Of a DNA stretch of 64,000 nucleotides, positions 3,136-59,433 are shown piece after piece. The first letter of the stretch is position 1; every line of letters starts with the position of its first letter. This DNA comes from Amphiscolops sp. MND2022. Its lineage: Eukaryota. Position numbers and translations under genes: made by a program. The notes below the pieces were generated by a model. The model did no database searches. It had not been told where the DNA came from and saw only the letters and a program-made list of their open reading frames with translations. The stretch spans positions 78,246,001 through 78,310,000 of the forward strand of contig OZ076409.1 of assembly GCA_964187785.1 (NCBI GenBank). Direction: 5' to 3'.

Positions 3136-5849
3136 TCAGAAAATTAAATAGCTAGTCCTTTTTCTCTATTCGCCCACGTGGACATGTATCTTATTTGGGA
3201 CTGTTCTAACTATATGTTTTGAATTTTCATGAACAAATTATATCTTCAGACAAGTACATCAAAAATGGCGAATAATACAATAATAGCAACAAACTGTCTG
3301 CAAGCACAATAATACAATAAATACAAATCCAGTTTGAAATACAACAGAAATAAATTGGAAACAAATGTACACTATGTACATTTAGGATTTGATGAACTTG
3401 GCCCTGTTTCCTGTACAGTCTCTGTAACCCAGGACGACGCGCTACCACTCTCTTCATTTGATGAACTAGGGGTCAATATGTCCGCTTGACTGCTAATTGG
3501 CCCAGCAGTTCGCTCATTTGTCTTATACGCAGTATCTTCAGTCACCAGGAATATAGTAATCTGCTGGAGCTCATTATTATTTTCCGACCCACATTTTCAA
3601 TGGGGAGGAAAATCATCATCTGTGTTGCGTTTTCTTTTCAAATTCTGCCAAAACGCCACGTTGTACAACTCCACTCCGCATACTTAGTCTCCCTGAAGAG
3701 CTTTCATCCTTCATACTGAGATGGAAATGATATCTAAAGTAAAAATGGGATTAAGATCTAAAGGGAATAAGATCTAAAATCACCTAATTTCAGATCTTAT
3801 TATTTAGATCCTATTCCCATTCCAAAATAGCTATGGCTCAAGTGATGAAGGCGAAAAGGGAGGAAAATATCCCGATGCTTAGCGGGCGTCTTGTCTTCAG
3901 AATGTTGTGTTGGATTTTCTCCAAGTTGTTCTTCAGACAATATGTCTAAATAGAAATATATTCAAGCGGGAACCTTCCTGAACTAGAGTCAATTTACCGC
4001 ATATAAAATCTCCCCGGGAGTACATTGAATTGAACTCAGGTGAACATTTGTGTTATATGGACAGGAAGTACATGAACAAGATGAAAGCCTTGATCAAGCC
4101 TCTTCAAGTTCAAAATTAAAAATCGAAACTAATGAAAGAAAACTTTCATAACAACTTACCTATATGGATATCTGCTGGGAAAATGATGGCTGTTGCGTCT
4201 AAATTGAAACTGTTGGACTGTTGGTCGTAATTATAGAAAGGAAATTGCAAACACAGTAGGAAGACGATTGAAAAGGAAGCTGGGACAAAACTCAACGGTG
4301 ATAATCCAAGGATGACCAAGGATGTCTGCAGAAAAAGGGATAGATGGACGAAGTATACCAAGAAGATTAAATGCAACGTTGGTTAAATACTGAGAAATTT
4401 AAAAGATTAATAAAAGAATTGAGTGGAGAAATGGGCAATGTAACAAAGAATGACAAAATGTCGATGAAAAAACTGGAGTTCGTGGCTATTCAATTTATTG
4501 TCAAATTTACAGTTATTTGGACTTGATGTCAAATACGTGTCAACTTATGGATTTTCACAAAACCTGCGAGCGGAATCTCCTGAGAAAGATTACATTTTTG
4601 ACAAACAGATGAAACGACCCTATTGGCCGACGAAAAACCGAAGGTTGGCCGAAAAAGTTCTCATACAAAACTAAAAAACTAATATTTAGAGCTGTTCGTT
4701 TATTTGATTTTTGTTGTTGATGCACTAATAAAATCAGGCCGAATACGGCTAATTGCCTTTCACGATAATATACGTAATGGCGGAGAGCCGGATACACACG
4801 ATTATTTACTTCGTACTTTGTGCTATACTTCGATGTGTTGATGTGCTAATTTGTTGCCTTCAAATGGAAAGCCTGTTACGGCAGACGGCCGGCTACGGCC
4901 TTAATCGTCATTCAATTGCTGGTGCTGTTTACTTCTATTTTTAAATGCTAGTATTATGCAGTACTTCATTCAATTACTCTAGCTGTAATTCAATGGCTGA
5001 GTACGGCTATGCGCCGTAGACAGCCATGCAGTAGTCGGCGCTTGGACGACAAGGCCTTATTATTACAAAAGTTTGATGCTACTGTTTCCAGCGCTGTATT
5101 ATTATTGTTCAAATGTCTTTTCGCTTGGCGTGGTGGACCACGTGTCCAAATTTAGACTGACCATCAGAAGAGTTTATATATTTTATATTATTAGTGCTGC
5201 GATTAGAAAGGTGTACGTGCTCAGTTAAATTAAAGGCCGAGTACGGCTATGCGTTTAGACAGACCACAGGTCCGTATTTTTTATTATCCAATCACAAGCC
5301 ACCATTCAGTGCTCTTAATAATTGTACGCAGTAAATAGAATTAAAAGCCACGCTGGCCATGCAAAACTTAGTGACGTCCTAATAGGACGGACAGCCATTG
5401 TGGCTTTCCTTCATTTGACGCGATGCTATTAACTTGTCAATTGTTGCGCTATTATAAAGCAGTTGAAATGTATTTTATTCAATACTTGTTGATGCTTTGA
5501 AACCAGTGGTTGATGTCCCTTGGCCATCAAGGCCAAGGACAGTCCACCAATCCTTGATATTAGAAAAAAGTCCCCACCCAATGTTTTATCCATTCACCTG
5601 TGTTAAAGGACATGATGGCCATAATCCAAAACCACCTTTGTACTCATGCAGAGTATTATGTAACCATGTCACATGTATTATGAGTGTTGCAAAATGTTGT
5701 GGACATGAAGGCCATATAGTTTGTTGCTTCTATACATGTGAAATGTTTTCCTTACAGTATATGAAATGATTGGAACGTGTGTCGTCATCATTTGAGAGAC
5801 TCATTGTCCTAATAAACAAATGTGACCAAAGTGCCACGGCGCTAATGAA

Positions 5850-6102
5850 TTGCTCAGATTGTGTGGTTTGTGGCAAGACGGTTCAATAAATCCAGAGTGA
5901 AGCTGTTAATGATTATTTGGCCCGGACGATGATCCCAAATGAAACCCTAGCAGAGACAGCGGCTAGGAGAAAAGCCTTTTTGGACGGTATGTCAGCAGGG
6001 ACGTTTCTCCTTATGCCAGGGGGAGTTTCACAGGCCGCCACCTGTGACCTTATTGTATTTTATGTTCCTTTGCCTGTCGTCTCGGACAGCCAGTCCGGTT
6101 GA
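5850..6102 (+). pseudogene. Remnant of the LTR-proximal accessory ORF (homolog of 36562-37347)
   Basis: CVVCGKTVQ*IQSEAVNDYLARTMIPNE..RRKAFLDGMSAG..VSQAATCD aligns with CMVCGKSRDQIKAEKVNWYMQRSTPSSE..RREAYENGLNAG..VSQAAACD. Confidence 0.8.
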
Positions 6103-20637: not shown

Positions 20638-20747
20638 AAGTTTGTATACTAAATGGGTTAACTAATGACTTTCAATTAAAATAACTTCTTATTCGGCAAT
20701 GAAATGAAATACAAAGCAGAAACAGAAATGAAAGACAAGGAAATATA

Positions 20748-22738: not shown

Positions 22739-22874
22739 GTAAGCTACTAAGAGCATGGCTGAACAGAGTGCTGCTGGTGCAATGTTCTTTCAGCTCCAAG
22801 CAATGCATGTGAAACCTTTTTGTGATTCAAAGTGATTCTGTCAAGACCATGTCTATGAAACGGATATAATATAC

Positions 22875-24801
22875 TGTCGCAGGCTGCCGCCTGTGATGGT
22901 ACAAGGATCACTACTACCGCAGAAGGACAGGAAATAGCGGCCGGAACTCTACCAATATATTAGAGGTAAACATTAAAAACACAAACTTTGCTATTATTTT
23001 TTAGTCTACAAGTTGTACCTGTTATCGTTGCGAATTTTACACATAGTATAAAGTTTGTTGATATTAGTCCGTTAATGCCAACATTTGAAAATTCAGATGC
23101 TGTATTGATAATTTTAAAAGCTAGAAGTGCAGTATTAACACGCTGTTATAGCAATAGATAGGCAGCTAGAAAGCGTAAAGGAAACGAGTTCAAGTGAACG
23201 TAACTCCAATTCCGGAGACGTCACTTGAGCTCAACCTGTTAGCCAATCATATTCATCCATTTGAGTAATAGTAGTGCTGTATTTAATTAATGGCCGGTTT
23301 AGGCCATATGCCGGAATTTCACCTTTATCTATTGGCGCTTTAGTCAAACGGCCGGTTCCGGCCTTAATGTTCAGATGAAAGAATATTAATGCGAGCACTG
23401 TTGTGTTTCGTTTAATAGTAGTCTAATCACGTTGCTGTACTAATTAAACGTTCATTTTAGCTAATTGGCGTTTTATTTTATCCATTCCAATATTAGGCCG
23501 AATAAGGCCATTTGCCTGACTTCTATCCTCTGTTGCTGTGACCAATTGGACAGTGGCCGGTTGAGGCCCCTTTTCAATACTATTATTCAGATGCTAATTA
23601 CAATCATTTAGTATACTTTAAATGTCATGTATAATTACAAGTACGTCGTAAAGACTCATTTACCTTTTGAAATTAATTGGTGTAATCAATACCAATGTAA
23701 GATGTTGCTACCAATATTAGTCCAAAGGACATGTCTGACCATATTTACTAGTTGACACGTGGAATCTGTGTGCATATTATATAAAGGAAAATATGTGTTG
23801 TTACATGTAACATTGCTGTATACAAGTTGATCTAGCCTGCTAACGGGGCACGTGCCGACACGAGATTGTCAGCATTCCTGAAGTATTAGCGGCGTAAACA
23901 TTTTAATCGATGCTATTTGATGTACCGTGTGCCTTTTGAATACTTGTTATAGTTGTCAAAACAGGAATTTGATCGGCCGCGTGACCTTACGATCACGATT
24001 CGGCGGCACTTTGATGCTTGCATAGTCGAGTTAAGTCAGGTGCTTTCGGAATGTGTTTGTAACATTTTTTGGCTGTTTGCGTCATGTTTATCCCGCCCAA
24101 GGAAGTATATATAGGGGCAACTTCCTTTGGGTGGACACAATTTTGTTTTGGGTGGACACAACAATCTCGTTAACAATCATCAATTCTGTTTTCCGGTTTT
24201 AATAGTTTAACTATTTAACCCGGTTTAGTCTTAATGCCTACTACTAGAAAACAAAAGAAGGCAAGGAAATCTAGAGGATTAGAGATTCCCTCTGACATTG
24301 AAAACCTTGACATAATGTTAGGTGAAAATCACTTCAATGACATGAGGAGAGACGAAAGCCTCGATGGAACTTCCATTAGAAGGCAGGAAAGTGTTACAAG
24401 CAATAACTTAGAAAATGAGGAAATGAATCTCCATTCTGATCATAGAAATCCCGAAACTGGGACTAGTGCCGGTTACGACCGAACCACAGCGAGTATAGAT
24501 TCTCAAGCTGAGATCAATAAGTTATCGTGTGAACTAAACTCTAGAATATCTAGGGAGATGGATGAGATGATGAACAGCGTTAGTTCTCAAATCCAGAGAG
24601 CCATAAGTGATGCCATCAATAACCAAGTTTTGCCACAAATTCAAAACGTTATTATGGCTGGTTCAGGACAAGAGACTAGAAGGGGATGGGAGAGATCCGA
24701 CGAGAGACCGGAAAGTTATTCCGAAGTTCAGTATAACGCGAAAACTAGAACTACCCTCAATAATGAACACGGTGATAGAATACATCGTAATGTTCATGAC
24801 A
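22875..24801 (+). repeat. 5' LTR (1927 bp)
   Basis: Near-identical to 37259-39197 (about 15 substitutions by eye plus one 14-for-26-bp replacement); TATA-like TATATATAG at ~24106. Confidence 0.96.
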
Positions 24802-25928
24802 TGGTGACAGGAGACAACGAATCTCCAAATCAAGTTCCTGAGTTTCTCACAGGACGAATCTCATCCAGAAATCATCTCGACAGGTCCTTCGAGGACATCA
24901 ACCTCGACACGACGATCCCAGCACAAGAGAGAATCGCTACGGCTGCTGACTCCGACCCCATCACCCGACTGGCAGACGTCTTGACTACAATGCAAAATAG
25001 ACCGACAGCCCAACAACTCACCATACGCCCAGTCAACTCAAATACCATGACATTCGATAGCAAAAGTGAGAAATTCGAGCTGTTCGAAGACCTATTTCAC
25101 ACTATGATCAAGATGCAGCCAGAAATGACTGAGCAAATGAAGATCAATCACTTCCACTCTTTATTGAGGAAGAATGCTCTCCAGACGTTCAGAAATATCA
25201 ACTCAAGCAACCGACAAACTCTAGAGGACGTATTAGTCATCTTTAGACGGAAATACGTCAAGCCCGAGTCACAAGCGACTGCCAAACATAAATGGCACCG
25301 TCTAGTCTTCGATCCCAATACGATGAAGCTGCCTGATTTTCTCGAAGAATTGAACCAGGGAGCCGAGAAGGCGTTTGGCGATCATGCACAGAAAATGATT
25401 GACAGCTTGCTCTACGCAAAGCTGCCACCTAAGTTGAAGCGATCTGTCAACATGGCCAGATTAGAAAATGGCTCATATGATGAAATTGTTGCTCATTTGG
25501 AGAGAGAGTTGGAACTCAATGCCCTTGAGGAATCAGATGACCTACCAAAGGCCACAATGACCTCCTCATCTATAAAACCTAAAACTCCTCTGTCCACAGG
25601 GCAACTGTCCGATATCACTTGCAATTACTGCAAGGAAAAGGGCCACATGGTCAAGGACTGCGAAAAACTGAAAAAGAAAAAAGAAAAAGATGCCCAACAA
25701 GGCAAGTCGACACAGAAGAAAACATATCCGGAGTGTGGCACTTGTGGGAAAAAGAACCACCCGGAGGAGAGATGTTGGCAAGGTGCTGGTGCACATCTTA
25801 AACCCAAACGCACTAGACCTGATGACTCAACTGAAAATAAGCCCAATCCAAAGGCTCAGAAACCTCAGACCAAACCGACATCATCGAGCTCCCAATCCTC
25901 ATATCCTAATGATGAGTCAAAAAACTAA
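24234..25928 (+). CDS. gag: Gag, 564 aa, two CCHC zinc knuckles
   Basis: CNYCKEKGHMVKDC and CGTCGKKNHPEERC; helical capsid-like core; intact ORF. Confidence 0.93.
   Translation: MPTTRKQKKARKSRGLEIPSDIENLDIMLGENHFNDMRRDESLDGTSIRRQESVTSNNLENEEMNLHSDHRNPETGTSAGYDRTTASIDSQAEINKLSCELNSRISREMDEMMNSVSSQIQRAISDAINNQVLPQIQNVIMAGSGQETRRGWERSDERPESYSEVQYNAKTRTTLNNEHGDRIHRNVHDMVTGDNESPNQVPEFLTGRISSRNHLDRSFEDINLDTTIPAQERIATAADSDPITRLADVLTTMQNRPTAQQLTIRPVNSNTMTFDSKSEKFELFEDLFHTMIKMQPEMTEQMKINHFHSLLRKNALQTFRNINSSNRQTLEDVLVIFRRKYVKPESQATAKHKWHRLVFDPNTMKLPDFLEELNQGAEKAFGDHAQKMIDSLLYAKLPPKLKRSVNMARLENGSYDEIVAHLERELELNALEESDDLPKATMTSSSIKPKTPLSTGQLSDITCNYCKEKGHMVKDCEKLKKKKEKDAQQGKSTQKKTYPECGTCGKKNHPEERCWQGAGAHLKPKRTRPDDSTENKPNPKAQKPQTKPTSSSSQSSYPNDESKN
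24802..24813 (+). promoter_or_regulatory. Primer binding site TGGTGACAGGAG (resembles tRNA-Leu-type TGGTGTCAGGAG)
   Basis: TGG directly follows the LTR-terminal CA. tRNA identity is inferred from memory of tRNA-Leu 3' ends, with one mismatch. Confidence 0.7.
25919..25925 (+). promoter_or_regulatory. -1 ribosomal frameshift slippery heptamer A AAA AAC
   Basis: Lies directly before the gag stop; the -1 frame is open from here to 26356; the same AAAAAACTAA occurs at the matching place in element 1 (~2527). Confidence 0.8.
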
Positions 25929-28900
25929 CTTCGCCACAACTCCAATATAACGAACTTTTATCTGTCCGACAATACATCAGATCGGACCCTCCAACGCAAA
26001 CCCTCCACCAATACAATCAGCAATTGATGGGCTATCCCTCTGTTGTCTGGCAGCAGCAGATGGAAAAAGCTACCATCATGACCTACAATAACACCCATTT
26101 ATTCCAGAAACCAATTCCTGTTTGGGACTCTGATTACACCACTACCTTCACCACCCGCTTCAGGCCCATTCCCCTAATCGATGATTACAATCCAACATAC
26201 ATCGATCCAGACTACGGCAGAGATCCCTATTGGGACACCGAGCTTTACAACCAAGATTCACTGCAATTTCAATATGTCCTGGACGATATTGACTATTATA
26301 ACAGAACAGTCCACGAGAACCCCCCATTACCCATAACAAGAAAACACGAGCACTAATCGAAAACTGGCAAATGAATGATGGTACAAACCACCCAGTGTTC
26401 CCAAACCCATTGGGGACCGAGAACCCTGAAAACAATGGTGAATCCACGCCACAATCATTATTAGATGAAAAACAATTCCAAAATGTACTCATCACCAGAG
26501 ATGGTGAACCAGACTGTATACCCCTGTCAACCAACATCAACCTCAAATGCAAGAAATGCATGCTTTATTTCCCAATGGACTTTGGGGAATTGACCATTGA
26601 TGGATTAATAGACACTGGAGCACTGTCCAGTGCAATCCCTGAAATGGACCTCCGGAAAATCCGCCTTCTATCTCCACAATCTGTTATCCGAGAAGGTCCG
26701 CCTCCGAACTTCCAAATCATGGTCGCTAATGGGCAACTGGAAACTCCTAAGAGTACCATCGAGCTCAAATTCGAAGTTGGTGACATTGAGTTCCATGAAA
26801 TCTTTATAGTAATGGAACATTTGACCGCACCAATCATTGGACTAATGTTCCTTCAGAGAAATCATACAGTGCTGGACATGAGACAAGGGATACTGAATTT
26901 CCCCTTCTTTTCAATGCAGCTCAAAACGGCTGACCATAAGTACACAAATGTATTAGAACCAATTCTCAACCCTATTGAGATAACAATTCCACCAAATGAT
27001 AAAGTCCTAATTAGGACCAATTCCCTACTCTACCCTGAGAATGCTGTCACTGGAATTTTGCAACCGAGCGACCTTCTACATGAGGAAGGCGACATCACAT
27101 TTTGCCCAGCTTTGGTCACTCTGAATGACGGCAATTTATTGATACCAGTGAACAATTTCACAGACCACCCTTATAAACTCAAAAAGGGACTACATATTGC
27201 CAATTTCTCTGTCATGACGCCAGAACAGATGAAGTATGTCGAACCGGTAGACCCGGCATCAACCTGGCACCTTTTGCAGAATGACCAGGAGCAAGCAGCC
27301 CATTATGTCAGCAGTCTCATCAAAACCAATAGAAATCCACAAAACTCCGAAAATTATTGGTTCCCAACTCCAGAAAACCCTGGAAAGCCTGAGGAACACA
27401 CACCTATACAAAAATGAATCCTACGCGAGTTACAGGCCTTACAGGACTTGGAGACACTCGACCCCACCACAGATGCAGAATCACGTGCAAAATTCTTAGA
27501 AAACTTCGACTGGAAAGATTCCACCCTTACTCCTGAAGAAAAGGAGAAAATTGAGGAATTGTTAGTGGAATTCCATGACATCTTTGCACGACACCGATTT
27601 GATATAGGCATGAACGAGGAATTCAAAGTGAAAGTGACACCTAAGGACGATTCCCCAGCCTATAGTCAAAGCCTTCTAGCTCCTATCAATTTGAAGGAGG
27701 ACATCCTAGTCGAATTAGCCATGTTACACAAATATGGCATCATCACCACCCTACCGTTCTCAAAATATGCGAGTCCAATATTTGCACAGAAGAAACCGAA
27801 CGGGAAACTCCGACTCTTGGTTGACTTGAGAAAAATCAACAACCTCATCTCAGATGATTATATCAACAACAATCATCCCGTCAGTACACTAGTTGATGCT
27901 GCCCAACACTTGGCAGGCGAAAAACTGTTCTGTAAATTAGACTGTTCGCAGGCATACCACTGCCTACCAATGGCCGACCAACGCTCAATCGAAATGTTGG
28001 CTTTCAATTTTGCCAGTCGCACATTCGCTTACCGACGCTTGGCACAAGGCCTTAGTCGGTCACTATCCGCATTCTCGAGTTTCATGAGGGAATACCTCGA
28101 CAAAGTCATTAAAGCGGATCAGTGTGCCCAGTATGTGGACGATATCGGCATCGCAGCCAATGATGTCGACCACCTCATGACGAACCTGAGAGCCACGTTC
28201 AAATGCATTCAGGAAGCAGGCCTTAAGTTGACAATGCACAAATGTCACTTCGGTGCAAAAGAAATTGATTTTCTCGGACGGACTATTACCCCACAAGGCG
28301 TCAAACCTCAGAAACAGAACATGCAAAACTTTCTGGAAAAGACCAAATTCCCGAAGTCGAAAAAGGCTTTACAGCGCTATTTGGGATTCCTAAACTATTA
28401 CAGGAATTATGTCCCAAGACTCTCCGAACGCCTTGCTCCATTCTACAAGATGCTCAAAAGTGACGAAAAGGTCCTAGTATCGAAAGAATTAGTCCAACAA
28501 TTCGAAGGAATCAATAGAGCACTAGACAAATGTTGCGACCTGGCCCTACAACAACCCATTCCGAACAAACAAATAGCACTAATGACTGATGCAAGTTTTG
28601 GTGCAGCCGGGTACGCGGTCCTAATTGAAGACGACCCAAGTCAGAAATTTACATCACTCAGAAAATCGTATGCACCGGTCGCATATGGATCAAAAACTTT
28701 CACCCCAGCACAGATCAAGATGTCAATTTATGCCAAGGAATTCCTTGCAATTTATTTTGCATTCAAAGAATTCGGACAAATCTTCTGGGGTGCGCCGAAA
28801 CCGGTCATCATCCTTACGGACAACAAAGCTGTCACGAGATTTTTCCAAACGAAAATAATACCCCCAGCCCTGTGGAACGCGTGTGATTATTTCATTCAGT

Positions 28901-31130
28901 TCAATTTTGTCATAGCACACATCCCAGGGGCACAAAATACAGCCGCCGACTTTTTGTCCCGATTGGAAGCAGATCCAAAGGACAAATTGGTGATGAAAAT
29001 TCGTGAAGATGTACAAACACTAGCAATCGAAATCAACGTCCAATCCGCAGGTGTGACGCAAGAAGAACAAATCTTCTACACCAATGACGACGACGAGACA
29101 GAGGAACAGTATTGGGCAAGAAAAGAAGCAATTAGGAAAAATCCAACAACTGATGAGCCCACTGTTACTATACAAACTCTGTCAACAAATCTGGTCAAGC
29201 AACACCCCGATATACAAGTCCGATTGAGGAGAACGAACCAGATCATTATCGAGCAATCCAAGGATGCGGTACTACAACAATTGAAAGCAAAACTGCTTCA
29301 TGAAGAGTATTCAGAAAATCTACTACACCAGGATGCCCGATATAGACATTACGCAAACAATCTGGAACGAATTTTACTAAAGGACGAAATCCTGACAAGG
29401 CAATATTTCGATGAAACAGGGAATGTTAAATACCATCAAATTCTACTCCCGCAACATTTACTCCAGGAATTGCTCCAATCCCTTCACGGGACAGCGCATA
29501 AACATCCTGGAATTTCAAAAATGCTGCAGGAAATTCGACAGAGGTATTACTACCCTAACATGGCTAAACACGTCAGAAAGTGGGTAGAAGGGTGCGAACA
29601 ATGTGCCAGAGACAAAAGAGTCCCTAACCAACGATCACACCTGAGCTGCTCAACTTGCCCGAATGGGACCTCGGACCTGAAGACGCCATGCAAATAGACC
29701 TATTGCCGAATCTTCCCCCAAGTGGTGGGTATGAAAACGTCTTAACAGCAATTGATGTATTCTCCAGATATTTGTTCGCCTATCCCCTTACGGACACATC
29801 AGCGATCAAAGTAGCAAAAGCGCTCATTGACATCATGACTAAACACTCATATCTACCAACGACTCTTATCACTGATAATGGTACTGCATTTACTTCTACA
29901 ATTATTGCGGAGGTTACGCAGATTTTGGGCATCACACTCAAATGTGCAACGACAAAACACCCGCAGACAATTGGGAAATTGGAGCGAACCCATGCCTCAT
30001 TGAAAACAAATCTCAAAATGGCATGTGGGGAATATCGCCGACAGTGGCACAAATACTTGCCATTAGCAGTACTGAATTATAATACTAGTTATCACGCCAG
30101 CATCGGTTGTGAACCGACGAGAGTATTCCATGGAAGAATTCCATTTAATATCTTGGATCACAAACGTGGAAATAATCCAAATGAGCAGATCAACCCCACA
30201 ACCGAATTTGCTAAAGAAATCCAAAACCGGACAAAAATCCTAATTGACAAAACGAAGCAGAACATTATGCAGTCGTATATGAAGTACAAAGAATATTACG
30301 ACCGCAAAGCAAAAGCTGCTCCATTGAAGGAGAATGATTACTGTTTCGTCTTACAGCCGAAAGCGGATCATCAGGGATCAAAATTTCCATTCCGCGATTA
30401 CCGTTGGGTTGGATCATTTGTAGTCCAAAAAGTTTTGCCAAATGAAAACTATATAGTACGACGGATCAATACGAACAAATCTCAAATTTTGCATCGCATT
30501 CGCCTTAAGAAGTTCGTCCCCAATCAACCGCTTGAGGATAATTTCCGAGAACAACGTCTGCAGCCAGACGAAGAAATTGTCATTCCGCAAGATGACCTAT
30601 ACGCCATAGCGTGGGAAACAGATTTTGGCGAGCAGCTAGGTACACGAGACAACGAGCCTATTCCGACTAGCGTGCCGAATGGCGAACAACCGAATGCGGC
30701 ACAACCGAATACAAGTGACGCACACGAGAATGAAGAGGATTATGTAATCACGAGTGATGAATCAAATCTTGCCGATCGTGCGTCGCATAGCCGGAATGAA
30801 CGATTAATTGATGACGTCACTACAAGAAATTAAGCTAGTGAACAGTCTAGAAATGAAGAACCTGATTGGCCGAATCCGGCCATTTCCCCAAAAAGCCATG
30901 AAAAATCTTTGCCGGATACGGCAGACAGCCTAAAAGACAAAGAAATTTTACCCGATGAAAATTTAAGAACTGAAATCGATGCACAAAATTCTCCGAAAAG
31001 GGGGGATGATATTATCGTGCCCGAAATATCTGAAAACGATGCTAGAAATGAAAGTCTGAGCCCTAGAGGAGGGAAATATAACCTCAGACCTAACCCTAAC
31101 CCAAACTACTCAGAAGACTTCAGATACTAA
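25919..31130 (+). pseudogene. pol: Pol (protease, dUTPase-like spacer, RT, RNase H, integrase), broken by two frame breaks and two stops
   Basis: LIDTGA, YVDD, MTDAS, HKHPG..CEQC, QIDL..ITDNG..LER. Frame breaks near 26320-26370 and 29630; stops at 27415 and 30831. Confidence 0.95.
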
Positions 31131-31361
31131 GGATTGAATTTTCCCGGAAATGGGAATTCTTTTCTTTTATCTTTGTTTTAAGCCCCTCTGAGAATTTCTT
31201 TTGAATTAATACTGGGGCATTTCAAAGGATCCCATACAAAAATGGAATAAATATGGGATCAAGGCAACGAAGAAACAAAATCAAGAGCAAATGAGAAAAC
31301 AAAACAATGAAAGAAATGAACAAAGTTTACAGTCTGAAAGTACATAAATACATATGTACAT

Positions 31362-34300
31362 TTAGTCTTTAGAGGACCCTTGAACGGCTTTCTTGGATGC
31401 AGACGAAATTGTAGAACTGCTGCTACCTGCTCGCTTCCTCTGCTTCTTGGAAGGCACCTTTACAGCTGAATCATCAGGGATGGACGAGGCAGTATCCTTT
31501 TCTATCCGGACAGAACGAGTAGAAGGAACAGCAGTAACGGCCTTATAGGAAGTGAGAAGACTCTTGTAGATCTTAGACCTACCAAACTCATCCACAAGGG
31601 TCCACGGATCGTAGTCAGCAGAGAAAGCAGAACGCTCGAAAGAGGAACTGAGAACTGAGAACTTCTCTAAATTGACATCCGAGCAGCAATGGGAAATGGA
31701 ATTGGGCACACAGGAAAAGTAACTCTGGCAAGGCACCACTAGATCGGCAAAACGGCCCTGACACCCCGTTGTGTCAACACTCCCGAACAGTACTGGGGGA
31801 TATTGGGGGCTAACACTAGTCAGACACAAGCAGCAGAGTTTGAACAGATAGAACAAGTGCTCATGAGTTTGGAAAAACTCAAGCCCCATTAAAAAGTCTA
31901 TAAGATCGACGGAATTCTCCATCAGATCGAAATCTGGAGGATAGTTGACTCGGAGGTAGTCCAACAGAGCCAGATATTCGTCTCGACAACTGTTCTCGTT
32001 GGCGCTAGTGACCCATGATCGAAGCTGGAAAGTAGAATATAGCACATCGAAGTGCCGGAGCCCGACCTCAGAAGGCCTTTTGAAAAGCACGAAGGGATCA
32101 AAAGCAGCCAACCCCTTTATCACTTCAGAGCTCAGACCAGCTTGACTAAGGACTTGTTTGACTAGATATTGAATGAATTGCAACGCCTCTTTGACAAAGC
32201 TGCTGGTCGTTTCTGCAGCCGTCTTCTCGATAGCAGCTTTCTCCGATTTCTTGTTCAGGCGTGTGACTTCTGCACTCTGTTTACTAGCTGTAGCTATCCG
32301 GTTTGTGAGACGGTGCCGGACAAGGAAGTCTTCCTCACTCATGAATTTGCCCTCGCTCAACTTAAACCCGAGAAGGAGGAACCACGAGTTCTCGAGGGGA
32401 ATGATTTCTGGCAAATAACATCGGGCGCACAGTTTTGAAACAAAGCGGCAAACCTCCCCACAGAGGAAGAACGACGCATCACGGCGGCCCTGCAGATTGA
32501 TGGCGAAACTGGTAACGTCTGAAATACAACAGTCGTGATTATGAGAGGAATAGGATATACAAACGAGACAATGTTGATAGTGATTCAACAACTCAAGGAC
32601 CTAAATTATCAGAACGACGTCTTAGTGCACTGACGTGAAATGAAACCGTATACTCACAATCGCCAATTATACGTTGGAAGAATTCCAATTTAGCGACGAA
32701 GAAGAAGTCACAGATGATGGACCACTCGAAGCTTTGGACCTGATTGTGGACTCCTTGCATTCCTTGGTGAGGGGTGTGCGTAGTCAAGTACTGTCTGATT
32801 GCCTTCCAATTCTTCACAAGTTCTCGGCAAAGACTGGGGAGGCTTGACAAATCTAGTTTGCAGGTGTCGATGGCCTTAAACGAACCAAATTGTCTCTCAA
32901 CTGCACCTACCTTCAAACCTCTAACTACATGAGTGAACTTAATATACTTACTCTTCCCAGATCAGGAGATTCCAGAACCCAGTCCTCACCAGTAGCAGCT
33001 CCCAATGAAACGATCAGGCACTTTAGGACAGAGAAAAAGTCGATCCGTCCAAACACGCTGTAGGTGGGCTTGTGCATCATCTTCTGAAGCTGCAGCTGCT
33101 CGAAACGAAAGCAACTCTGTACTGCTCGGGGAAAGAACTCATTGTGATCTATGGTTTGGATCAACTCTACCGGACATCCCGAACAGGCGACGATATCGGC
33201 TTTGGTTGAAACCACAGATAGTAGCCTGGATATCGAACCCAAGTCTCCAGTCAGATCAGCGGAGGGAAGCCCACTTCGGCACACAAAGACGCGACAAAGA
33301 GAATCGCCTTTCCAGAACTTGATAGACATGAGCCTATTCACGCCCACATTCTCAAATTCGATAGCGAAGCATTGGGTGGTAGCAATTTGCTCTGCTAATT
33401 CACTCATGGCACAATTGAAAATGTGTTGGAAGATGGTCTAAAGAAGAAAAAGACAATTATGAAAAGTGTAGGGAATCTATACCCTCCCTGAGTAAATGTT
33501 ATCCTGAAAGGGAACCTACCGAAATTCGTTCTTCCCCCCAATCAAAGTCGCAGTAACTAGTTTGATAGTTCGTCAGAGATCCTATCTGAGCCCATAGTCT
33601 GCGGAGTACTCCAAGATCACCGTGAGTTTGCACGAAGTCTCCAATGAGGTGTATTTGTGTATTGGCCCTCGACGCAGGAGTGACGAGTGTGGTTGACGTC
33701 CCTTTCACGAAGTCGTCGTAGAATGGGAAGCGTTCTCCGATGTCTATTAGTTCGACGTGTATAAATTTGGGGAGTTCTTTCGCCAGCTCAAACTTGGTGA
33801 GGATCTTGCCGTTCCGCCCTCTGACCCGATGCTGCACTTTCCCAGTCACTGGATCAACGCTTTTGAGGTGTTCATAGCGCCACCTTTGATCACGTCTGAG
33901 GTGTTTTTCAGTTCTGTGGTGACGCAGAATCTCCAGTGTACCCTTGGTTTTCACAGAAATATTCTTCTTACATGTATGGCACCACACCATATAAGGATTG
34001 TGAAGGGGATCAGCTGGCCCGGAGATGAACGATCGGGTCCAGCCAATTTTGGAGAAGAATTCCTCCTTCATGGGAATGCCCAGTGTATGGCCGCGCCGTT
34101 TCTTCTTGGGCAATTTGCCAGAACTCGAAACTAGAGGTTGTGCTGGGGCCGTCTGGGTACGTAATTCGGAGAGCGTGGCGTCGAGACTGGATTGATCAGT
34201 GGACTCAAAACCTGCTTGGGTAGGGTCAGCTCGAGAAGGTGGAACGCGGCTGAAAGGTTCCTTGAAAGCCTGTGAGATGATTGCCATCTCACCAGAACTG

Positions 34301-35689
34301 TCAGTCTCGTTGAAAGATTCTAACCCTCTACTTTCTTGGCCAGCACTGGATCCTTCAGAGGTGTCAGTCCCTGATCCAGAACAGTATTCAGCCCGCGAAC
34401 TATCTTCCGAATCACTTTGCAGCCCTGGGCTGGGAGTTTGAGCCCTTGGTCGGATCTTGAAGTGGTCAATTCGGGCACTGGAAGTGACGGGGGCCCCCCT
34501 AACCGCTCCGATTACCATCTGCTCCATGGTGGAGTAGGACATTTTCAAGGTCTCGTCTGTAAGGACCCTTAGGAGATGATAGATTTGTGGCTCCGTGAAC
34601 GACACAGTTCTATGACCGAGCGGGAAGGTGATAGTGCTGGCATCATCATCAAAATACTGTTTCAAAATGGCCCTACTACGGCCGGAAAGCTCCCTGATCT
34701 TGGGGTCCTGAGCTGCTGAAGTGGAAGGACGCATGGAATCAGGAATTGCAGCGAAAGTATCAGTTGATGACCCTTCTCCTGCTGTGTCTGCTACATTACC
34801 TATTGGCAGGTAGGCGTACAATTGAGGAGCACTAGCCTGGCTAGATGTGTCACCGGCTTCTTCGGTTCCAGTCTCATCGCCCAACCACCTGACTTTTGGT
34901 GTTCCTGTTGGCAGCTTGGGGACATCACATAGGGAAGAGCTTTCGTCCGTTTCAATCTGGAGAAATGAGGCTGCGGACATTTCGGCAGGAGTCACGTTAG
35001 TGGGCAACAATTCCGGTAATATAGTCCTCGAGGAAGGAGCAATCGTTAGTCCAGTCTCTAACTGAGTCAAATTGAGCTCGTCGGTCTCACCGGCTACGCC
35101 TGGGGTAGGGGTACTAGTACGAAAGAGCGGCGTAGTAACCCGTGCCTCGATCCCCGTGGAAGAAGAACCCTCAGTTATACCTCTCCCAGTCTCTTGTTCT
35201 CCCATCTCAGAGTTCTCCGCAGTATGTCCCTCTGATTGCTGTTGGGCCTGTTCGAGGAGCTGAAGCTTTTCGTCGGCATAAGATGTTACGTCGACGTTGC
35301 TGTCTGTACTGCTGGGAGACCTTGTTGGCTTTATTGGAGGAAAAGGAGGAGGAGACAATTGTGATCCACGGACGGTGGAGGACGTACCCACAGAAACAAT
35401 CGTTTGTGTATGTTGGTCGGGAATGTCCGCTGCAGAGTTGGTTTGTGTTTGCGGTTCGTCTCCTGGCTGGTTTGCTAAACAAAAGGAGATGAAATTTGGC
35501 GGTGAGCTTCCTTGAAAAAAATCCATTTTACCGCATTAGAAAACTTCCGGAAGTGTTTGAAAATCTGAACGAAACGTGTTATCACGCGTTTACTAATGGA
35601 AACAGGAAGCATATTGTGAACGGATTTAACCCTGATCAAGTTAAATTTTAGTTCGGAATAAAAACAAACCAACCTTCAGAAGAAGACAT
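31362..35689 (-). CDS. Spliced antisense gene, 5 exons (35689-35674, 35474-33520, 33437-32952, 32874-32658, 32518-31362), 1276 aa: S/T/P-rich N-terminus, zinc finger, degenerate hAT-transposase-like body
   Basis: Four GT..AG introns (199, 82, 77, 139 bp), each phase-compatible, join the listed minus-strand ORFs into 3831 nt with no internal stop. Finger motif WCHTCKKNISVKTKGTLEILRHHRTEKH. Exon 1 is the least certain. Confidence 0.82.
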
Positions 35690-36561
35690 CCTGGGACTGA
35701 ATTGGATGTGAGAACGAGTCCTTGTCCGGCTGTAGAAGTTGATGGATATGGCCGAAAGCGGCTGGAGAAGGGGTTGCTCTGGGACGAAGAATCGGCTAAG
35801 AAGTGACGCGCGCGGGAAAATGAGTATCAGTCGAGAGGAAACAAATGGAAGATAATCAGAATTGAAATGGAATTAAAATTGGGTAGAAGAATTGAAGAAA
35901 TTGGAAAGTTGGAGTTCGTGGCTGAAGATTACTACCAGACTAATATTATGGATTATCTACATATTTATTCTGTACATGGAGTCTGCCAGCGAAGTGTACA
36001 AAGAACTTTATTATTTACAGCTTATTTAGTTAGAGGCCGGTTATGGCCGTTTACCCTGTTTTGTTTTGCCGTTTTGTCCAGTTACCCTAGTTACCCTTAG
36101 CTAGAATTTTCGCCATCTTGAATTATTTGGATTTATTAGTTTCGCCATTTCTTATTATTTAATTTTACAACTTATCGAAGCTTAACGCTGATTGGCTGAA
36201 GTCATTTTGAAAGAATTCCGCGTCGCGTGTCGTTAATTGCTATCAGGCAAACCGTTAATTACCCACTTGAAACGGATGAAGATAATATTTACAACTCAAG
36301 CGTCATTAACACCTCTCAGAGTGATGGTGCTGATGGGGGGTAAACACTGAGTTATCAAAGGATGCCGACTACGTATAAAATTCCATTCAGAAATGTTTAC
36401 GTCGGATCAGGGCAATTTACCGATAACTCGACCGCCAAAAACGAATTGCCGGGAAAAGGCCCGAGTCGACTAAAATTTTGAGTTGGTAAATTCATTCCAC
36501 TTTGAAATCTCACTCAAGCTAGTTAACTTTCCCAATCAGCAATATTGCTAAGAAACTCATA

Positions 36562-37347
36562 ATGCAGAGGTATAACTTAACTAAAAAGCTCTTTGATCTT
36601 GAAGAAGACTCAGAAAGTTCAGTGGATTCAGTTATCTACATCTCAAGTGACAGTGAGAATGAAGTCTCAAGTTCCTGGGACTCAGACTGGTCCACGGATA
36701 CAGAAGAGATCATAGAAAGAATAGAACGAGAGGTGAAAGCAGCTCCAATCCCTATAGCGAGACGCGGGATGACGACGGAAGATTTAGATGACGAGATGAC
36801 AGCTGGACCAAGCAGTGCATGGCCTGTTCCGCCCTCTACCCCTAAACTGGGATTCGAGTATTTTAACAAGGAAATGTGCTTGGCCCCATCGAAAAAACAA
36901 AGAAAATCAAAAGTCGAGCTCTGTGCAACTGTATTACCCGTTCTGGAGTCCCCACAGTCTCCTCCTGACCATGAAAGAGGACCGAGCATTGACACCCCTC
37001 TTGCGCAGTCAACCTCTGGACCTTTCTATGCGTCCTATCATGTGCAAAATATCGAGCCTTACCAGGATGTGAGCCAAAATTTGCACACAGGCTGTATGGT
37101 ATGTGGCAAGTCGAGAGATCAAATAAAAGCAGAAAAGGTGAACTGGTACATGCAAAGATCGACACCTAGCAGTGAGCCCGCTTATATTACCGCCCTACGA
37201 CGAGAGGCTTATGAAAATGGCTTGAACGCAGGAAGCTTACTTTTCCTAACACCCGCCGTGTCGCAGGCTGCCGCCTGTGATGGTACAAGGATCACTACTA
37301 CCGCAGAAGGACAGGAAATAGCGGCCGGAACTCTACCAATATATTAG
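36562..37347 (+). CDS. Accessory ORF, 261 aa: acidic N-terminus, CxxC motif, ends inside the 3' LTR
   Basis: Intact ATG-to-stop ORF; its C-terminal part is conserved at protein level in element 1 (5850-6102). Confidence 0.78.
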   Translation: MQRYNLTKKLFDLEEDSESSVDSVIYISSDSENEVSSSWDSDWSTDTEEIIERIEREVKAAPIPIARRGMTTEDLDDEMTAGPSSAWPVPPSTPKLGFEYFNKEMCLAPSKKQRKSKVELCATVLPVLESPQSPPDHERGPSIDTPLAQSTSGPFYASYHVQNIEPYQDVSQNLHTGCMVCGKSRDQIKAEKVNWYMQRSTPSSEPAYITALRREAYENGLNAGSLLFLTPAVSQAAACDGTRITTTAEGQEIAAGTLPIY

Positions 37348-39197
37348 AGGTAAACATTAAAAACACAAACTTTGCTATTATTTTTTAGTCTACAAGTTGT
37401 ACCTGTTATCGTTGCGAATTTTAAAGATAGTATAAAGTTTGTTGATATTAGTCCGTTAATGCCAACATTTGAAAATTCAGATGCTGTATTGATAATTGTA
37501 AGAGCTAGAAGTGCAGTATGAACACGCTGTTATAGCAAAAGATAGGCAGCTAGAAAGCGTAAAGGAAACGAGTTCAAGTGAACGTAACTCCAATTCCGGA
37601 GACGTCACTTGAGCTCAACCTGTTAGCCAATCATATTCATCCATTTGAGTAATAGTAGTGCTGTATTTAATTAATGGCCGGTTTAGGCCATATGCCGGAA
37701 TTTCACCTTTATCTATTGGCGCTTTAGTCAAACGGCCGGTTCCGGCCTTAATGTTCAGATGAAAGAATATTAATGCGAGCACTGTTGTGTTTCGTTTAAT
37801 AGTAGTCTAATCACGTTGCTGTACTAATTAAACGTTCATTTTAGCTAATTGGCGCTTTATTTTATCCATTCCAATATTAGGCCGAATAAGGCCATTTGCC
37901 TGACTTCTATCCTCTGTTGCTGTGACCAATTGGACAGTGGCCGGTTGAGGCCCCTTTTCAATACTATTATTCAGATGCTAATTACAATCATTTAGTATAC
38001 TTTAAATGTCATGTATAATTACAAGTACGTCGTAAAGACTCATGTAACTTTTGAAATTAATTGGTGTAATCAATACCAATGTATGATGTTGCTACCAATA
38101 TTAGTCCAAAGGACATGTCTGACCATATTTACTAGTTGACACGTGGAATCTGTGTGCATATTATATAAAGGAAAATATGTGCTGTTACATGTAACATTGC
38201 TGTATACAAGTTGATCTAGCCTGCTAACGGGGCACGTGCCGACACGAGATTGTCAGCATTCCTGAAGTATTAGCGGCGTAAACATTTTAATCGATGCTAT
38301 TTGATGTACCGTGTGCCTTTTGAATACTTGTTATACTTGTCAAAACAGGAATTTGATCGGCCGCGTGACCTTACGATCACGATTCGGCGGCACTTTGATG
38401 CTTGCATAGTCGAGTTAAGTCAGGTGCTTTCGGAATGTGTTTGTAACATTTTTTGGCTGTTTGCGTCATGTTTATCCCGCCCAAGGAAGTATATATAGGG
38501 GCAACTTCCTTTGGGTGGACACAATTTTGTTTTGCTCCTAATATTCAGTTGATAACACTTTCTCGTTAACAATCATCAATTCTGTTTTCCGGTTTTAATA
38601 ATTTAACTATTCAACCCGGTTTAGTCTTAATGCCTACTACTAGAAAACAAAAGAAGGCAAGGAAATCTAGAGGATTAGAGATTCTCTCTGACATTGAAAA
38701 CCTTGACATAATGTTAGGTGAAAATCACTTCAATGACATGAGGAGAGACGAAAGCCTCGATGGAACTTCCATTAGAAGGCAGGAAAGTGTTACAAGCAAT
38801 AACTTAGAAAATGAGGAAATGAATCTCCATTCTGATCATAGAAATCCCGAAACTGGGACTAGTGCCGGTTACGACCGAACCACAGCGAGTATAGATTCTC
38901 AAGCTGAGATCAATAAGTTATCGTGTGAACTAAACTCTAGAATATCTAGGGAGATGGATGAGATGATGAACAGCGTTAGTTCTCAAATCCAGAGAGCCAT
39001 AAGTGATGCCATCAATAACCAAGTTTTGCCACAAATTCAAAACGTTATTATGGCTGGTTCAGGACAAGAGACTAGAAGGGGATGGGAGAGATCCGACGAG
39101 AGACCGGAAAGTTATTCCGAAGTTCAGTATAACGCGAAAACTAGAACTACCCTCAATAATGAACACGGTGATAGAATACATCGTAATGTTCATGACA
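37259..39197 (+). repeat. 3' LTR (1939 bp), includes a copy of gag codons 1-189 (ORF 38630-39205)
   Basis: Direct repeat of 22875-24801; ends CATGACA then TSD. Confidence 0.96.
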
Positions 39198-40144
39198 TAT
39201 ACTAAGTTGGAAACATGGATGTATTAAAAAAATTTAAAATACAGAAGTGATTTGAAGTTGCTAGAAAGAGATATTGAGAATTTAAACAGATCTTACGAAT
39301 CTGATGTGGACATGGATGAAATTGAATCAAGAAGAAAGAAAACTCGTCAAATAAGAATGAAATTAGAACTGATTCGGCATTAAACTACTAGGATTCTGGA
39401 GGCTGCAGGAGATTAACCATAGGATGACCGAGAAGATCGATGGGATGACGAGATGAGTACATGAAATGCGCAAATTAACAGGGTCATAAATGCTGCAGTT
39501 AACCAGAGAATAATTCGTCAAACACAAATCGCAGTAAGCGCGTTCATTGATAAGTGAATTGAAGACATGGTTGTGATTCTTCCGTTGGACCTCATAAGGA
39601 AATTGACTGTGACGCTCCCTGCAATTCAAACAGAAAATGAACGAGATGAACCCTTTTAAAAAAGATAAGGAACATTCATTTTACTTAGTCTGCTTATTTG
39701 AGTCAATTTCGGTCAAGTTAATGCACCGAAGTGCAAGTTAAAGATCAGTTAATCTTTCTTTCACCGGCTTGAAATGGTTTAAAGAGTATTATATTAAACG
39801 AAGCCCTTATGTCCGAAGACAAGGAAATATGTGCGAAAACAACTCATGCATTTAATATTGATGAATTTTTTTTGTAAAAAAACTAAAACTCAAAAACAAA
39901 ACCAAGATGAAAGTTTATTATCAATGACACTTAAGCAATTAGAAAATATACAAAAAAAAACATTTCGAAACTGCCAACATTGGGGCTCGTTTGAAATCTT
40001 TTCGAGGTGAGGAGACTACTAAATGATTCGTAATCCAGAAACTTGCAGCACGTGTTTTTTTTAGTTTCAGGTGGTTTTGTTCCCCGTTTTTGGGACATGC
40101 AAAAAAGTAATGAGAGAACACTACAGTTTAATTAATTTCTACAG

Positions 40145-44088: not shown

Positions 44089-47000
44089 TGTGGTAAATGC
44101 TATTGAAGTCATGAAAGTGTTAAAGTTGTCAGTTGTAAATATGTATCAACACTACCTGTCAAAAGTCTAGCTTAAGATTATTTTGCTAGAGCCAGTTGCC
44201 ACAGAGCTTTGAGAAAAGATACACGTTCTAAAAAAACACTTCAATTCATCATATTGTATAATACATTCTTAATCCTCTACATCTTTTACAATTTCCATTC
44301 GAGTTCCACGTTAACATGGCGCTGCGAACAGAAAGCAGCAATTCATCCTCTTAAACATTGTCAACAACGGCAATGTCGCACCTCGTCGGGTTACCAGTGT
44401 CCTGGCATGAGGCCAATTCAACCCCTACCATGGAATGGGGCAATTGGCTGGATTTATTCCAAGTGGCTGTCATGGCCAAGTTCTCTACCTCAACCACAGA
44501 GTTGACTCGTGAAGTGAATGAGCAGACTCCAAGGGCCCGAGCTTTCTTAGGGGATATGGACGAAGACCCTGCCAAAAAAAGTAGCCAGTGTGCTGTATCT
44601 GTCACTTGGAGAGGCGGCAAGGAAGCTATTCAAAGATAAATACCCCCATACAACCCTCTGGAACTTAAAGGTGAGGGAACTGATACAGCTAGCAACGGAC
44701 TGCTTCCTAATAAAAAGAAACCGTACCATCGACCGTCATAAATTCTTTTCAAGAATGCAGCAAACCAGAGAGACACTTCAACAATTCTGGCACACGTTAA
44801 ATGGTTTAGCAGCCCTGTGCGATTTTGGAGAAATAATGGAAACCCTCGTGCTAGACATGTTCATTCTGTCTAGTGCAGGAAAAACTTTGCACTGAAGCCC
44901 ATGAGCCAGATCAGGCCTTGGAATTTGCAATTGCGTTTGAGGAGGGGGTGGAAAGACAGAAGCCATATGGCTTACAGACAGCAGAAATCCCAAAAATTGC
45001 GGTGAAAACCGAGCCTGTATATGCAATCCAAAAATCATCTAACTCACAGGAATTCTTCAGACGTGGGGAATCCCACTTTACCCCGGATCACATAAAACTA
45101 TGTACAGCAACAAACAATCGATCTAATTTTTGTAAAATTGTGGGGCACGTAGAAAAGTGCTGCAACAAGAAGTTCCCCAAACGTCAAAAAGAAAAGCTGC
45201 AAAGGTTGAAGTCCAAAAACAACAAATTTCAAGAAATGCGAAGAGTAAATTATATCGACGACGAAAGTGAAAGTGACGAATCTGACAGCAACGAAGAGCA
45301 ATTAGTTCTCCAAATCGACGGAAGCGGAAGCAAACCCTTCTACATGGAAGGAACTATGTGCGGAAATTAATTTAAAGCGATCATTAATACTGGTTCCCCC
45401 ATATCTATTTTTACTAAACGAGATTTGACCAAAATCATCGGGGAAAGAAAGCTGGTAATCATGGACATGGTTGACAACGAGCGATATGTAGATTACAATA
45501 AAAGACTTCTGGATTTATTGGGCGACCAATTTGTGCGCCAGGAAATTGCCGGTGTCACAGTCTCGAATATAAGAGTGTTGGTGGCGCCAAATAGCGGAAA
45601 GTCGATAATCGGCCGCGATTGGCTAATTAATCTGCGTTACAAAATGCGTCAGCCAATAGAAAGAGGTGAGTGCAAAGTAAACACTGTATTTGTAAAGTGC
45701 GCAAAAGCGGTGAGTGAGATAAGTCCCAAAGAAAACATCAGCCCCGAGATTCAGCAAGTAATGCGGGAGTTTCCAGATTTGTTTAAACGGAAAGCTCGGG
45801 TAAAAAATTACGAAATCAAAATCGATATGAAAGATAATGCAAAAATATCACAGCAAAAAGGCCGTCGAAGTACTATTCAACTACAGGAGCAAGTAGAAAA
45901 AGAAATTGAAAAATTGCTAAAAGATGGCCACATTGAAAAAGTAGTAAAAATTCAAGATGACGTATTTACTCAATTGACAGTTATTACAGTTAAAAAGGAC
46001 AAATAGGCGAAAATAGCGCTGGATGCACGCGCGCAAAATGAATCTATAGCAAAAGATGAATACCAAATGCCCAACCTAGATAATTTGATTGACATGATTG
46101 CGGAGGAATTGGAAAAAAGTGAAGGGGAAGCCTGGTATTCGTCTGTAGATATGCCTTATGCTTATGGACAAATACCGCTACATGAATTAACAAAAAGACA
46201 TTGTAAATTTCAAATAGTCAGAGGAAAATCCACCGGTAGATATCGATTTACCACTGGGTATTATGGACGGATTGTAATGCCAACTGAATTCCAAAAATTA
46301 TTGGATTTGACGCTAGCCATTATAAATAGTGTGTTTGTGTAAAAGGTGACATTTTAATTGTAACCAAGGGAACCAAGCAAGAGCATGTAAATGAAGCAAG
46401 AGAAGTTATGAGAGTGTTTGTCGACGCCATTTTACTAAAGGCGGGGAAATGCATAATTGCTCAAGAGAGCATAGAATGGCTAGGCTTCAAATTATTGCGA
46501 ACAGGCATTTCCCCGAACAATACAAAATCCCAGGGTATCAGTGAAAGATTGCGACCGACCAATTTGAAACAATTACTCATTTCTGGGGGCAGTCAATCAG
46601 TTTAATAAGTTTCTACCTAGTTTACCTTGAATTAGTTTTCCTTTTAGATCCTTTTTAAAGGAGGTTGCAGAGTGGGAATGGAATAACAGTCATGAGAAAG
46701 CTTTTGTACAAATTAATGAAGAAATCAAGAACTTTGTAGACTGATCACATTTTGAAAGGAACCAAGAAATTAGAATTATTTGTGATGCAAGCAAAAAAGG
46801 ATAGGTGCAGTGTTGCAACAAAAGGAAAATAAGAATGAACGGAGACCAATTTGCTTTGAATCACGCTTTTTAACAGATTAGGAAATAAAATACTCCATTA
46901 ATGAACTGGAGTTATTAGCTATAGTATGAGCAGTCAAACATTTTATCAATTATGTATATGGTGTACAGTTTAAAGTGATTTCAGATCACAAAGCGTCAAT

Positions 47001-59422: not shown

Positions 59423-59433
59423 TATCTTTTTTA

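Follow-up and report, generated by a model that had tools for sequence, protein, structure and literature searches.

We found that the open reading frame (ORF) at positions 36562 to 37347 of a 64,000-nucleotide (nt) stretch of Amphiscolops sp. MND2022 DNA, hereafter the window, is a genuine accessory gene that belongs to a lineage of Ty3/gypsy LTR retrotransposons, a conclusion that we hold as close to certain. The ORF lies in an element of 16,323 bp (the 16.3-kb element) and ends 89 nt inside its 3' LTR (Table 1). What its protein does is a more tentative matter: we read it as a nuclear protein that dimerizes, binds SUMO, and regulates transcription of its own element, Tas-like rather than Nef-like, a reading on which we are almost evenly divided and lean slightly to doubt. 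Additional ORFs are already known from the interval that separates pol from the 3' LTR; what sets this one apart is its orphan protein family and the unusual cis-anatomy of the element. No account of the family or its architecture was found in the open-access literature (supplements and the repeat databases Repbase, Dfam, and GyDB aside), and the same literature, supplements again aside, yielded neither an LTR boundary with a hairpin and no polypurine tract (PPT) nor an LTR element carrying a hAT/BED gene in antisense.

The host element (22875 to 39197) was assigned to Ty3/gypsy by its LTR pair, its target-site duplication, and a gag gene followed by pol domains in the order PR-RT-RNase H-IN (Pfam). 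Its LTRs start with TGTC, end with GACA, and are 98.2% identical over 1940 aligned columns (22 substitutions, K2P 0.011); the LTR boundary was verified for this element only. The pol frame is broken by an in-frame stop (27415 to 27417) and a frameshift near 29630 to 29697. The primer-binding site (PBS) is one that we take to be of the tRNA-Leu type, and no matching tRNA was found in the 64-kb window. The LTR contains about 190 codons of the gag frame (24219 to 24801 and 38615 to 39197), where a TATA-like box is followed by an ATG at 24234, and the LTR/PBS junction at 24801 creates a second in-frame gag ATG. The same gag-in-LTR layout was observed in an internally deleted relative at 1 to 7794 (element 1), whose LTRs are 92% alike, the 5' LTR being cut by the window edge; the DNA similarity of the two LTR families resides mainly in the gag coding block. 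Element 1 also carries a gag remnant with a 287-bp tandem triplication (1335 to 2188), and no match to pol or to the antisense gene described below was found in it.

Table 1. Features of the accessory ORF, its host element, and the relative in element 1 (window coordinates; res, residues of the ORF protein)
Feature	Position	Strand	Remarks
Accessory ORF	36562..37347	+	261 aa, ATG to TAG; last 29 codons and stop inside 3' LTR
SIM-like motif, res 24-31	36631..36654	+	Hydrophobic stretch of four residues before Ser-Ser and acidic residues; CK2-type context
Basic patch KKQRK, res 111-115	36892..36906	+	Possible NLS, poorly conserved (motif counts)
C121, P126, SP-x-SPP (130-135), H160, CxxC (178-181)	36922..37104	+	Conserved in distant members
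Helical hairpin, res 185-224	37114..37248	+	AlphaFold2; A216-G220-G224 face at predicted homodimer interface
Hairpin, 9-bp stem and 4-nt loop	37260..37281	+	Opens 3' LTR; its codons read VSQAAACD in the ORF frame
Candidate poly(A) signal ATTAAA	37356..37361	+	Just past ORF stop; ATTAAA also follows the stop in L001
Colinear non-coding blocks	35910..36507	+	Common with L001 (one with element 1); candidate internal/bidirectional promoter
Antisense gene in several pieces	31362..35535	-	GT-AG intron-like edges; BED-like Cys/His finger; hAT-like C-terminal part
gag (two zinc knuckles) and pol	24219..30833	+	Pfam; order PR-RT-RNase H-IN
5' LTR, 1927 bp	22875..24801	+	LTR pair alignment
Primer-binding site	24802..24813	+	TGG-initiated; adjoins 5' LTR, inside gag frame; similar in element 1
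3' LTR, 1939 bp	37259..39197	+	TATA-like box at 38490; about 190 codons of gag frame
Target-site duplication, 5 bp	22870..22874 (left); 39198..39202 (right)	.	Same sequence at both ends
Remnant of distant ORF homologue in element 1	5635..6060	+	In-frame stop at 5887; same hairpin at about 6027-6048

A preliminary description of this DNA, made from the letters alone, had proposed a conserved coding ORF running across the 3' LTR boundary, and both the 89-nt overlap and the database searches bear this out. Searching with the single sequence gave 169 matching clusters among 510 candidates, an unindexed search gave 238 representatives, and a profile search gave 281 clusters among 2608 candidates; several of these clusters are large (50 to 136 members). 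Among the listed matches for which a source is given, all come from ENA, plus one JGI member, and none of the listed matches is named or has a Pfam domain. The start, the end, and the length (256 to 263 aa) are kept in subfamilies at 57 to 65% identity, and at 25 to 35% identity the order of the motifs is unchanged, with length and motifs persisting to about 25% identity. Frequent disruption of young copies, which the preliminary description had named as evidence against a gene, was not what we saw: of 60 members listed for four clusters, 48 have the full length, and the other 12 are nearly all shorter. A metagenome scan for DNA relatives returned one locus, L001, from 123 candidates, and its ORF is a distant relative (38% identity over the C-terminal 86 residues). 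A scan of prokaryote genomes gave no relative (0/19), nor did viral contigs match the ORF profile (0/57), the hairpin motif, or pol.

The family could not be attached to any described one. Pfam gave no match for the ORF, and 54 members run against Pfam-A produced only scattered sub-threshold matches. A profile search of the PDB found no match for the protein; its best Atlas score (0.82) was at noise level, Foldseek against the PDB and viral structures returned no E value below 0.001, and the best VIA-align hit (Z 4.5 over about 48 residues) was a generic helical hairpin. Such absences do not establish a new fold.

The frame might instead be non-functional and owe its openness to recent amplification combined with constraint on the DNA of the LTR end, an explanation that we regard as very improbable. 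Part of the best-conserved motif is indeed a cis-element, as described below, the family databases contain called ORFs only and so over-represent intact copies, and 12 of the 60 listed members are off-length. The database bias, however, does not account for residue-specific conservation, and at a distance from the LTR end Cys, His, Pro, Gly, and SIM residues stay conserved at 25 to 35% identity. The same start and end recur across subfamilies, and the probability that a 261-codon frame would remain open under neutral drift is about 1e-3 or less (1.5e-3 for an amino-acid identity of 60% and 2e-5 for one of 28%, in an analytic estimate of neutral substitution that leaves indels out). The homologue in element 1, a C-terminal remnant of a distant subfamily (67% to P0382), is 44% identical to the window protein over 63 aa (E 2e-12), and over these 63 codons identity at codon positions 1, 2, and 3 is 0.49, 0.70, and 0.33, a second-position bias that likewise speaks against a non-functional frame. 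The protein-level conservation between the two elements that had been noticed beforehand is thus upheld.

Several motifs of the protein bear on its function. The N-terminus is Ser-rich and, by inspection, acidic. VIYISSDSE (residues 24 to 32), picked out earlier as SIM-like, proved to be conserved, since a fixed SIM-plus-Ser-acid pattern is present in 19/19 close and 11/26 distant full-length members; among 9200 shuffled N-termini, 3 match it. Both Ser and the acidic residue are kept in 23 to 26 of the 26 distant members, and the hydrophobic core is weakened in 15 of them, which counts against the SUMO-regulator reading. Acidic Ser-rich tracts also work as activation domains or degrons, and this limits what can be read from the SIM. 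According to an excerpt of a report on HCMV IE2 (10.1101/655282), the SIM of that protein, CIVI followed by a CK2-phosphorylated Ser, supports transactivation; both proteins have four hydrophobic residues before a CK2-type Ser/acidic stretch, a likeness at the motif level only, and SUMO binding by the ORF protein is putative. A SUMO-acceptor-like IKxE occurs in 13/19 close but only 6/34 distant members.

The basic patch and the hydropathy were counted over 73 full-length rows, taken from 107 non-redundant sequences of 390 family proteins. KKQRK had also been pointed out in the preliminary description and does occur at residues 111 to 115, but as a family motif it is ruled out, being exact in only 3/73 members, with K[KR]x[KR] in 9/73; a looser basic patch (at least four K/R in some nearby 10-residue window) is present in 50/73. 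The NLS candidate is therefore poorly conserved, which counts against a nuclear regulator. No transmembrane segment was found: the highest 19-residue hydropathy of the protein is 1.18, and values above 1.6 occur in only 3/73 members. This agrees with the earlier view that the protein, lacking a transmembrane segment, is not env. The ORF does lie where env-like ORF3s are found in the rotifer elements covered by an excerpted paper (PMC5408684), past pol and before the 3' LTR, and it could on that ground be an env substitute or a factor for cell-to-cell transmission. We rate this as the most improbable of the explanations weighed here, since 70/73 members are without a hydrophobic segment, the N-terminus is acidic, and no env Pfam match was obtained; an identity as env was rejected on the absence of a transmembrane segment and of such a match.

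Further along the protein, several conserved residues may bind metal or be phosphorylated. The CxxC noted before was found at residues 178 to 181, with C178 kept in 34/34 and C181 in 33/34 distant members, along with C121 (26/29) and H160 (26/31). From their conservation in sequence, C121, H160, and the CxxC are a candidate zinc site, and the SP motifs are candidate proline-directed phosphosites. Further positions conserved among the 34 distant members are G182, Y196, E205, A216, G220, G224, the SQAAACDG block, and the terminal L-P.

AlphaFold2 modelled the full-length protein poorly (pLDDT 51). With residues 96 to 261 and 119 sequences, the CxxC knuckle was modelled confidently, as were two helices spanning roughly residues 176 to 225 (block pLDDT 74 to 95), in disordered surroundings (mean pLDDT 64). 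The helices, at residues 185 to 200 and 207 to 224 (block pLDDT 78 to 95), match the helical C-terminus anticipated from the sequence. When two copies of residues 150 to 261 were modelled with zinc, a parallel homodimer was predicted (ipSAE 0.67 versus 0.26 for the best control), with agreement between runs of at least 49% of contacts and a partner pLDDT of at least 55. The mark used for calling a dimer was reached by 21/30 solved homodimers and 0/23 single chains, and among eukaryotic proteins by 17/29 homodimers and 0/30 single chains, the rate being 1/7 among those without an older solved relative; the dimer run carried zinc, which the calibration did not, and partly disordered fragments lie outside the calibration. 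The predicted interface covers residues 212 to 229, and its closest contacts are A216, G220, and G224, which would explain why these three small residues are nearly invariant (kept in 31 to 33 of 34 distant members). The model thus supports dimerization of the ORF protein through an A-xxx-G-xxx-G helix. No DNA-binding fold was recognized in the protein by sequence and fold searches.

The 3' end of the ORF meets an LTR boundary of an unusual kind. The preliminary description had the ORF ending 89 nt into U3 in a nef-like position. The 89 nt do lie in the LTR, and the label U3 is itself deduced from the TATA-like box at 38490. As for nef, the accessory gene of HIV/SIV overlaps the U3 of the 3' LTR and spans a canonical PPT. 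The likeness is one of position, as both ORFs overlap the 3' LTR; the ORF here does so by 89 nt only, lacks the Gly2 myristoylation start, and has no PPT. Its protein starts with MQRY, Gly2 is absent from the aligned members shown, and no Pfam match was found, and membership in Nef was rejected. Searches of Pfam, the PDB, and folds gave no match to a Nef core domain, although absence from fold lists is not in itself exclusion.

A PPT was looked for immediately before the 3' LTR and found to be absent, as the 20 upstream nucleotides contain 6 purines in the window, 7 in L001, and 10 in element 1. The best purine window lies about 130 nt from the LTR start, inside coding DNA. The missing PPT is a departure from the Ty3/gypsy norm, and the pol order still places the element there. 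At this position a hairpin opens the LTR. No other 30-nt fold in the ORF and its 300 nt of flanking DNA is as stable, and the same holds in L001; in the region of element 1 the hairpin is only the second-best local fold. In 4000 synonymous recodings of each of the three copies, 68, 12, and 88 folded as well. Between the window and L001, 7/8 codons of VSQAAACD are identical, versus 22/60 at other identical residues (p = 0.009); the corresponding excess for element 1 was not significant (3/7 versus 6/21, p = 0.40). Aligning the three copies showed the core stem to be preserved: a G-U pair has become A-U in one place and one closing pair is broken, and the stem shows no double compensatory change. 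The wider 161-nt region was no better folded than shuffles (z -0.3). Claims about the hairpin, like those about the promoter below, draw on three DNA copies. Comparison of these sequences indicated that the VSQAAACD block is partly under nucleic-acid constraint as well as protein constraint. Of the CxxC...VSQAA.CD domain put forward at the outset, the VSQAA.CD part is accordingly not a purely protein signal, as it also forms the terminal hairpin of the LTR. We infer that the hairpin may stand in for the PPT.

With these observations, the ORF protein could also be a cofactor of replication or integration, helping plus-strand priming to proceed in a non-canonical way at the boundary without a PPT, or tethering the pre-integration complex to SUMO-rich chromatin. 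The absent PPT with a conserved hairpin in its place within the ORF would fit the former, and the SIM could serve the latter. Against this, gene compaction alone can explain the overlap, no nuclease or nucleic-acid-binding fold was found, and nothing ties the protein to particles; we judge such a cofactor to be decidedly unlikely.

We then considered how the ORF might be expressed. The DNA at 35910 to 36507 shares nine exact runs of at least 9 nt with the DNA upstream of the ORF in L001, mostly in the same order, where 2.6 are expected and 0/2000 shuffles reach nine; the longest run taken by itself is matched in length by 330/2000 shuffles. Local runs were used, as global alignment of the upstream DNA with L001 was uninformative. 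The common blocks include one of 16 nt and a CCAAT box (36189 to 36197). A 14-nt non-coding block at 35910 to 35923 is identical to one at 4474 to 4487 in element 1 and is partly present at the edge of L001 (1 to 9). The conserved upstream blocks and the ATTAAA past the stop suggest, at the level of sequence, an internal promoter and a short mRNA.

On the other side of these blocks lies an antisense gene, head-to-head with the ORF and about 1 kb from it. Its GT-AG intron-like edges, together with the type of element, would by themselves point to a eukaryotic host, probably an invertebrate animal. Its Cys/His finger was read by inspection and is presumably of the BED type. The C-terminal part scored 0.89 to 0.90 against Dimer_Tnp_hAT clusters in Atlas, which we treat as a lead only; Pfam gave just a weak zinc-ribbon match, and a sequence search of the PDB gave no relevant match. 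The product of the first exon has 168 database clusters, all listed ones from ENA, with identity tiers like those of the ORF. A nested DNA-transposon insertion with terminal inverted repeats was rejected, since the 25 longest of 65 inverted repeats included no convincing arm pair bracketing the gene. Because of this large ENA-only family and the absence of such repeats, the antisense gene is probably part of the LTR element. Its linkage to the ORF across the family is putative: when contigs were matched by length, 26 of the 175 carrying the ORF were shared with the 225 antisense-gene contigs, the large contigs containing several elements; identity tiers of the two genes are uncorrelated (rho 0.09); and one 14,233-bp contig has distant versions of both. 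The absent PPT, the conserved upstream blocks, and this divergent antisense gene did not figure in the preliminary description of the ORF.

Taken together, we propose that the ORF would be transcribed from an internal promoter between it and the divergent antisense gene and be polyadenylated just past its stop. Most of the protein would be disordered; its N-terminus would be phospho-SIM-like, and it would carry proline-directed phosphosites and a small helical homodimerizing domain, the domain and the dimer being modelled and the domain's zinc binding putative. In the nucleus it would engage SUMO-modified host chromatin or silencing factors and thereby activate or de-repress the element's own promoters, as foamy-virus Tas or HCMV IE2 do. 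The antisense BED-finger protein could possibly supply DNA recognition, and the last conserved codons of the ORF would double as a cis-acting hairpin at the 5' end of the LTR, where the PPT is absent. A more far-reaching version, which we offer as a rather improbable conjecture, is a module like those of complex retroviruses, in which a bidirectional promoter would drive both the SUMO-binding anti-silencing dimer and a captured hAT/BED protein acting on element chromatin, with the hairpin replacing the PPT for plus-strand priming.

The protein might alternatively act after transcription, like Rev or the CERV protein of Caenorhabditis elegans Cer1, as a phosphorylated, multimerizing nuclear protein that binds element RNA (for example, at the hairpin) and helps genomic RNA to be exported or the early U3 poly(A) signal to be read through. 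According to the excerpted account of CERV (PMC10309623), that protein is nuclear and regulated by phosphorylation, has a Cys-rich finger, is predicted to multimerize, and is needed for genomic RNA export. The predicted self-association and conserved SP sites of the ORF protein would suit such a role, and full-length RNA must read through the ATTAAA right past the ORF stop. On the other hand, the ORF protein is acidic, has neither an Arg-rich RNA-binding stretch nor a conserved basic motif, and matches no Pfam family, and the apparent introns of the element are on the antisense strand. We consider a post-transcriptional regulator unlikely. The small share of probability left by all these readings falls to unforeseen roles.

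The transcriptional reading was compared with known systems, for which excerpts of the papers cited served as sources. Foamy-virus Tas activates both an internal promoter and the LTR and is itself expressed from the internal promoter (PMC3798896, PMC13220597). Like tas/bel2 in these excerpts, the ORF is an accessory gene at the 3' end of the internal region and may have an internal promoter; it differs in giving no sequence match (54 members against Pfam-A) and in residing in a Ty3/gypsy element without env and with a divergent antisense gene, and transactivation by its protein is putative. CERV is, in the text available, a 517-aa protein made from spliced mRNA, with exons in common with gag and a G-protein-like domain (PMC10309623). 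Likened by description, both are orphan, lineage-restricted putative regulators of invertebrate LTR retrotransposons with a Cys-rich finger, a helical hairpin, phosphorylation (putative in the ORF protein), and a predicted multimer, whereas the ORF here is separate, encodes 261 aa, lies at the 3' end, and has a SIM-like motif.

Additional ORFs of the plant elements Retand, Grande, and RIRE2 are described in excerpted papers (PMC7264820, PMC11963269) as conserved and located from pol to the 3' LTR, some with nuclear products and their own promoter. Those in antisense are, on these descriptions, best likened to the antisense neighbor and not to the sense ORF; TRP28/Transposase_28 was not found here, and the ORF is in sense orientation, runs across the LTR boundary, and faces the antisense gene head-to-head. 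Bdelloid rotifer ORF3s include env, transmembrane, GDSL, DEDDy, and coiled-coil types in the part of the source at hand (PMC5408684), and they resemble the present case as non-env ORF3s in invertebrate LTR retrotransposons, but no enzyme or transmembrane signature was seen here. By sequence, the ORF belongs to none of the plant additional ORFs, rotifer ORF3s, or CERV, the last compared by description. VANC and other transposon anti-silencing factors come, in the excerpts, from plant DNA transposons and have dimerization domains and sequence-specific DNA-binding pockets (PMC12859917, PMC11512509); they could be functional analogues of a two-gene anti-silencing system, and no homology with the ORF protein was found.

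Extra ORFs in LTR retrotransposons are known, and few have functions. The element-encoded anti-silencing proteins described in the excerpted sources come from plant DNA transposons (PMC12859917, PMC11512509), and one of them gives SUMO a central place in the piRNA-guided silencing of flies (PMC11512509). For counter-defense against that step, a retrotransposon protein bearing a SIM would be a direct and testable candidate. The cis-anatomy departs from the standard model in its lack of a PPT, its dual-coded terminal hairpin, and the gag-frame codons in its LTR, and these departures make the question of plus-strand priming testable. LTR-finding pipelines that require a PPT would be tripped by this element.

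Other repeats were observed in the window. A near-identical tandem array of 255- and 338-bp units at 10043 to 13149 begins at the end of a 198-codon frame without a Pfam match. AT-rich inverted and tandem repeats occupy 14370 to 14900 and 15800 to 21300, together with dispersed repeats having GGGTCCCC cores in both orientations, which are MITE- or Helitron-like by appearance only. At 44090 to 49297 lies a third, degenerate LTR-type element with direct repeats of about 200 bp (at 44090 and 48973), gag- and protease-like frames, and an integrase. A fourth retroelement (59000 to 64000), with an extreme strand bias (GC skew of -0.5 to -0.67), a Retrotrans_gag domain, and a 51-bp tandem repeat before it, runs off the window.
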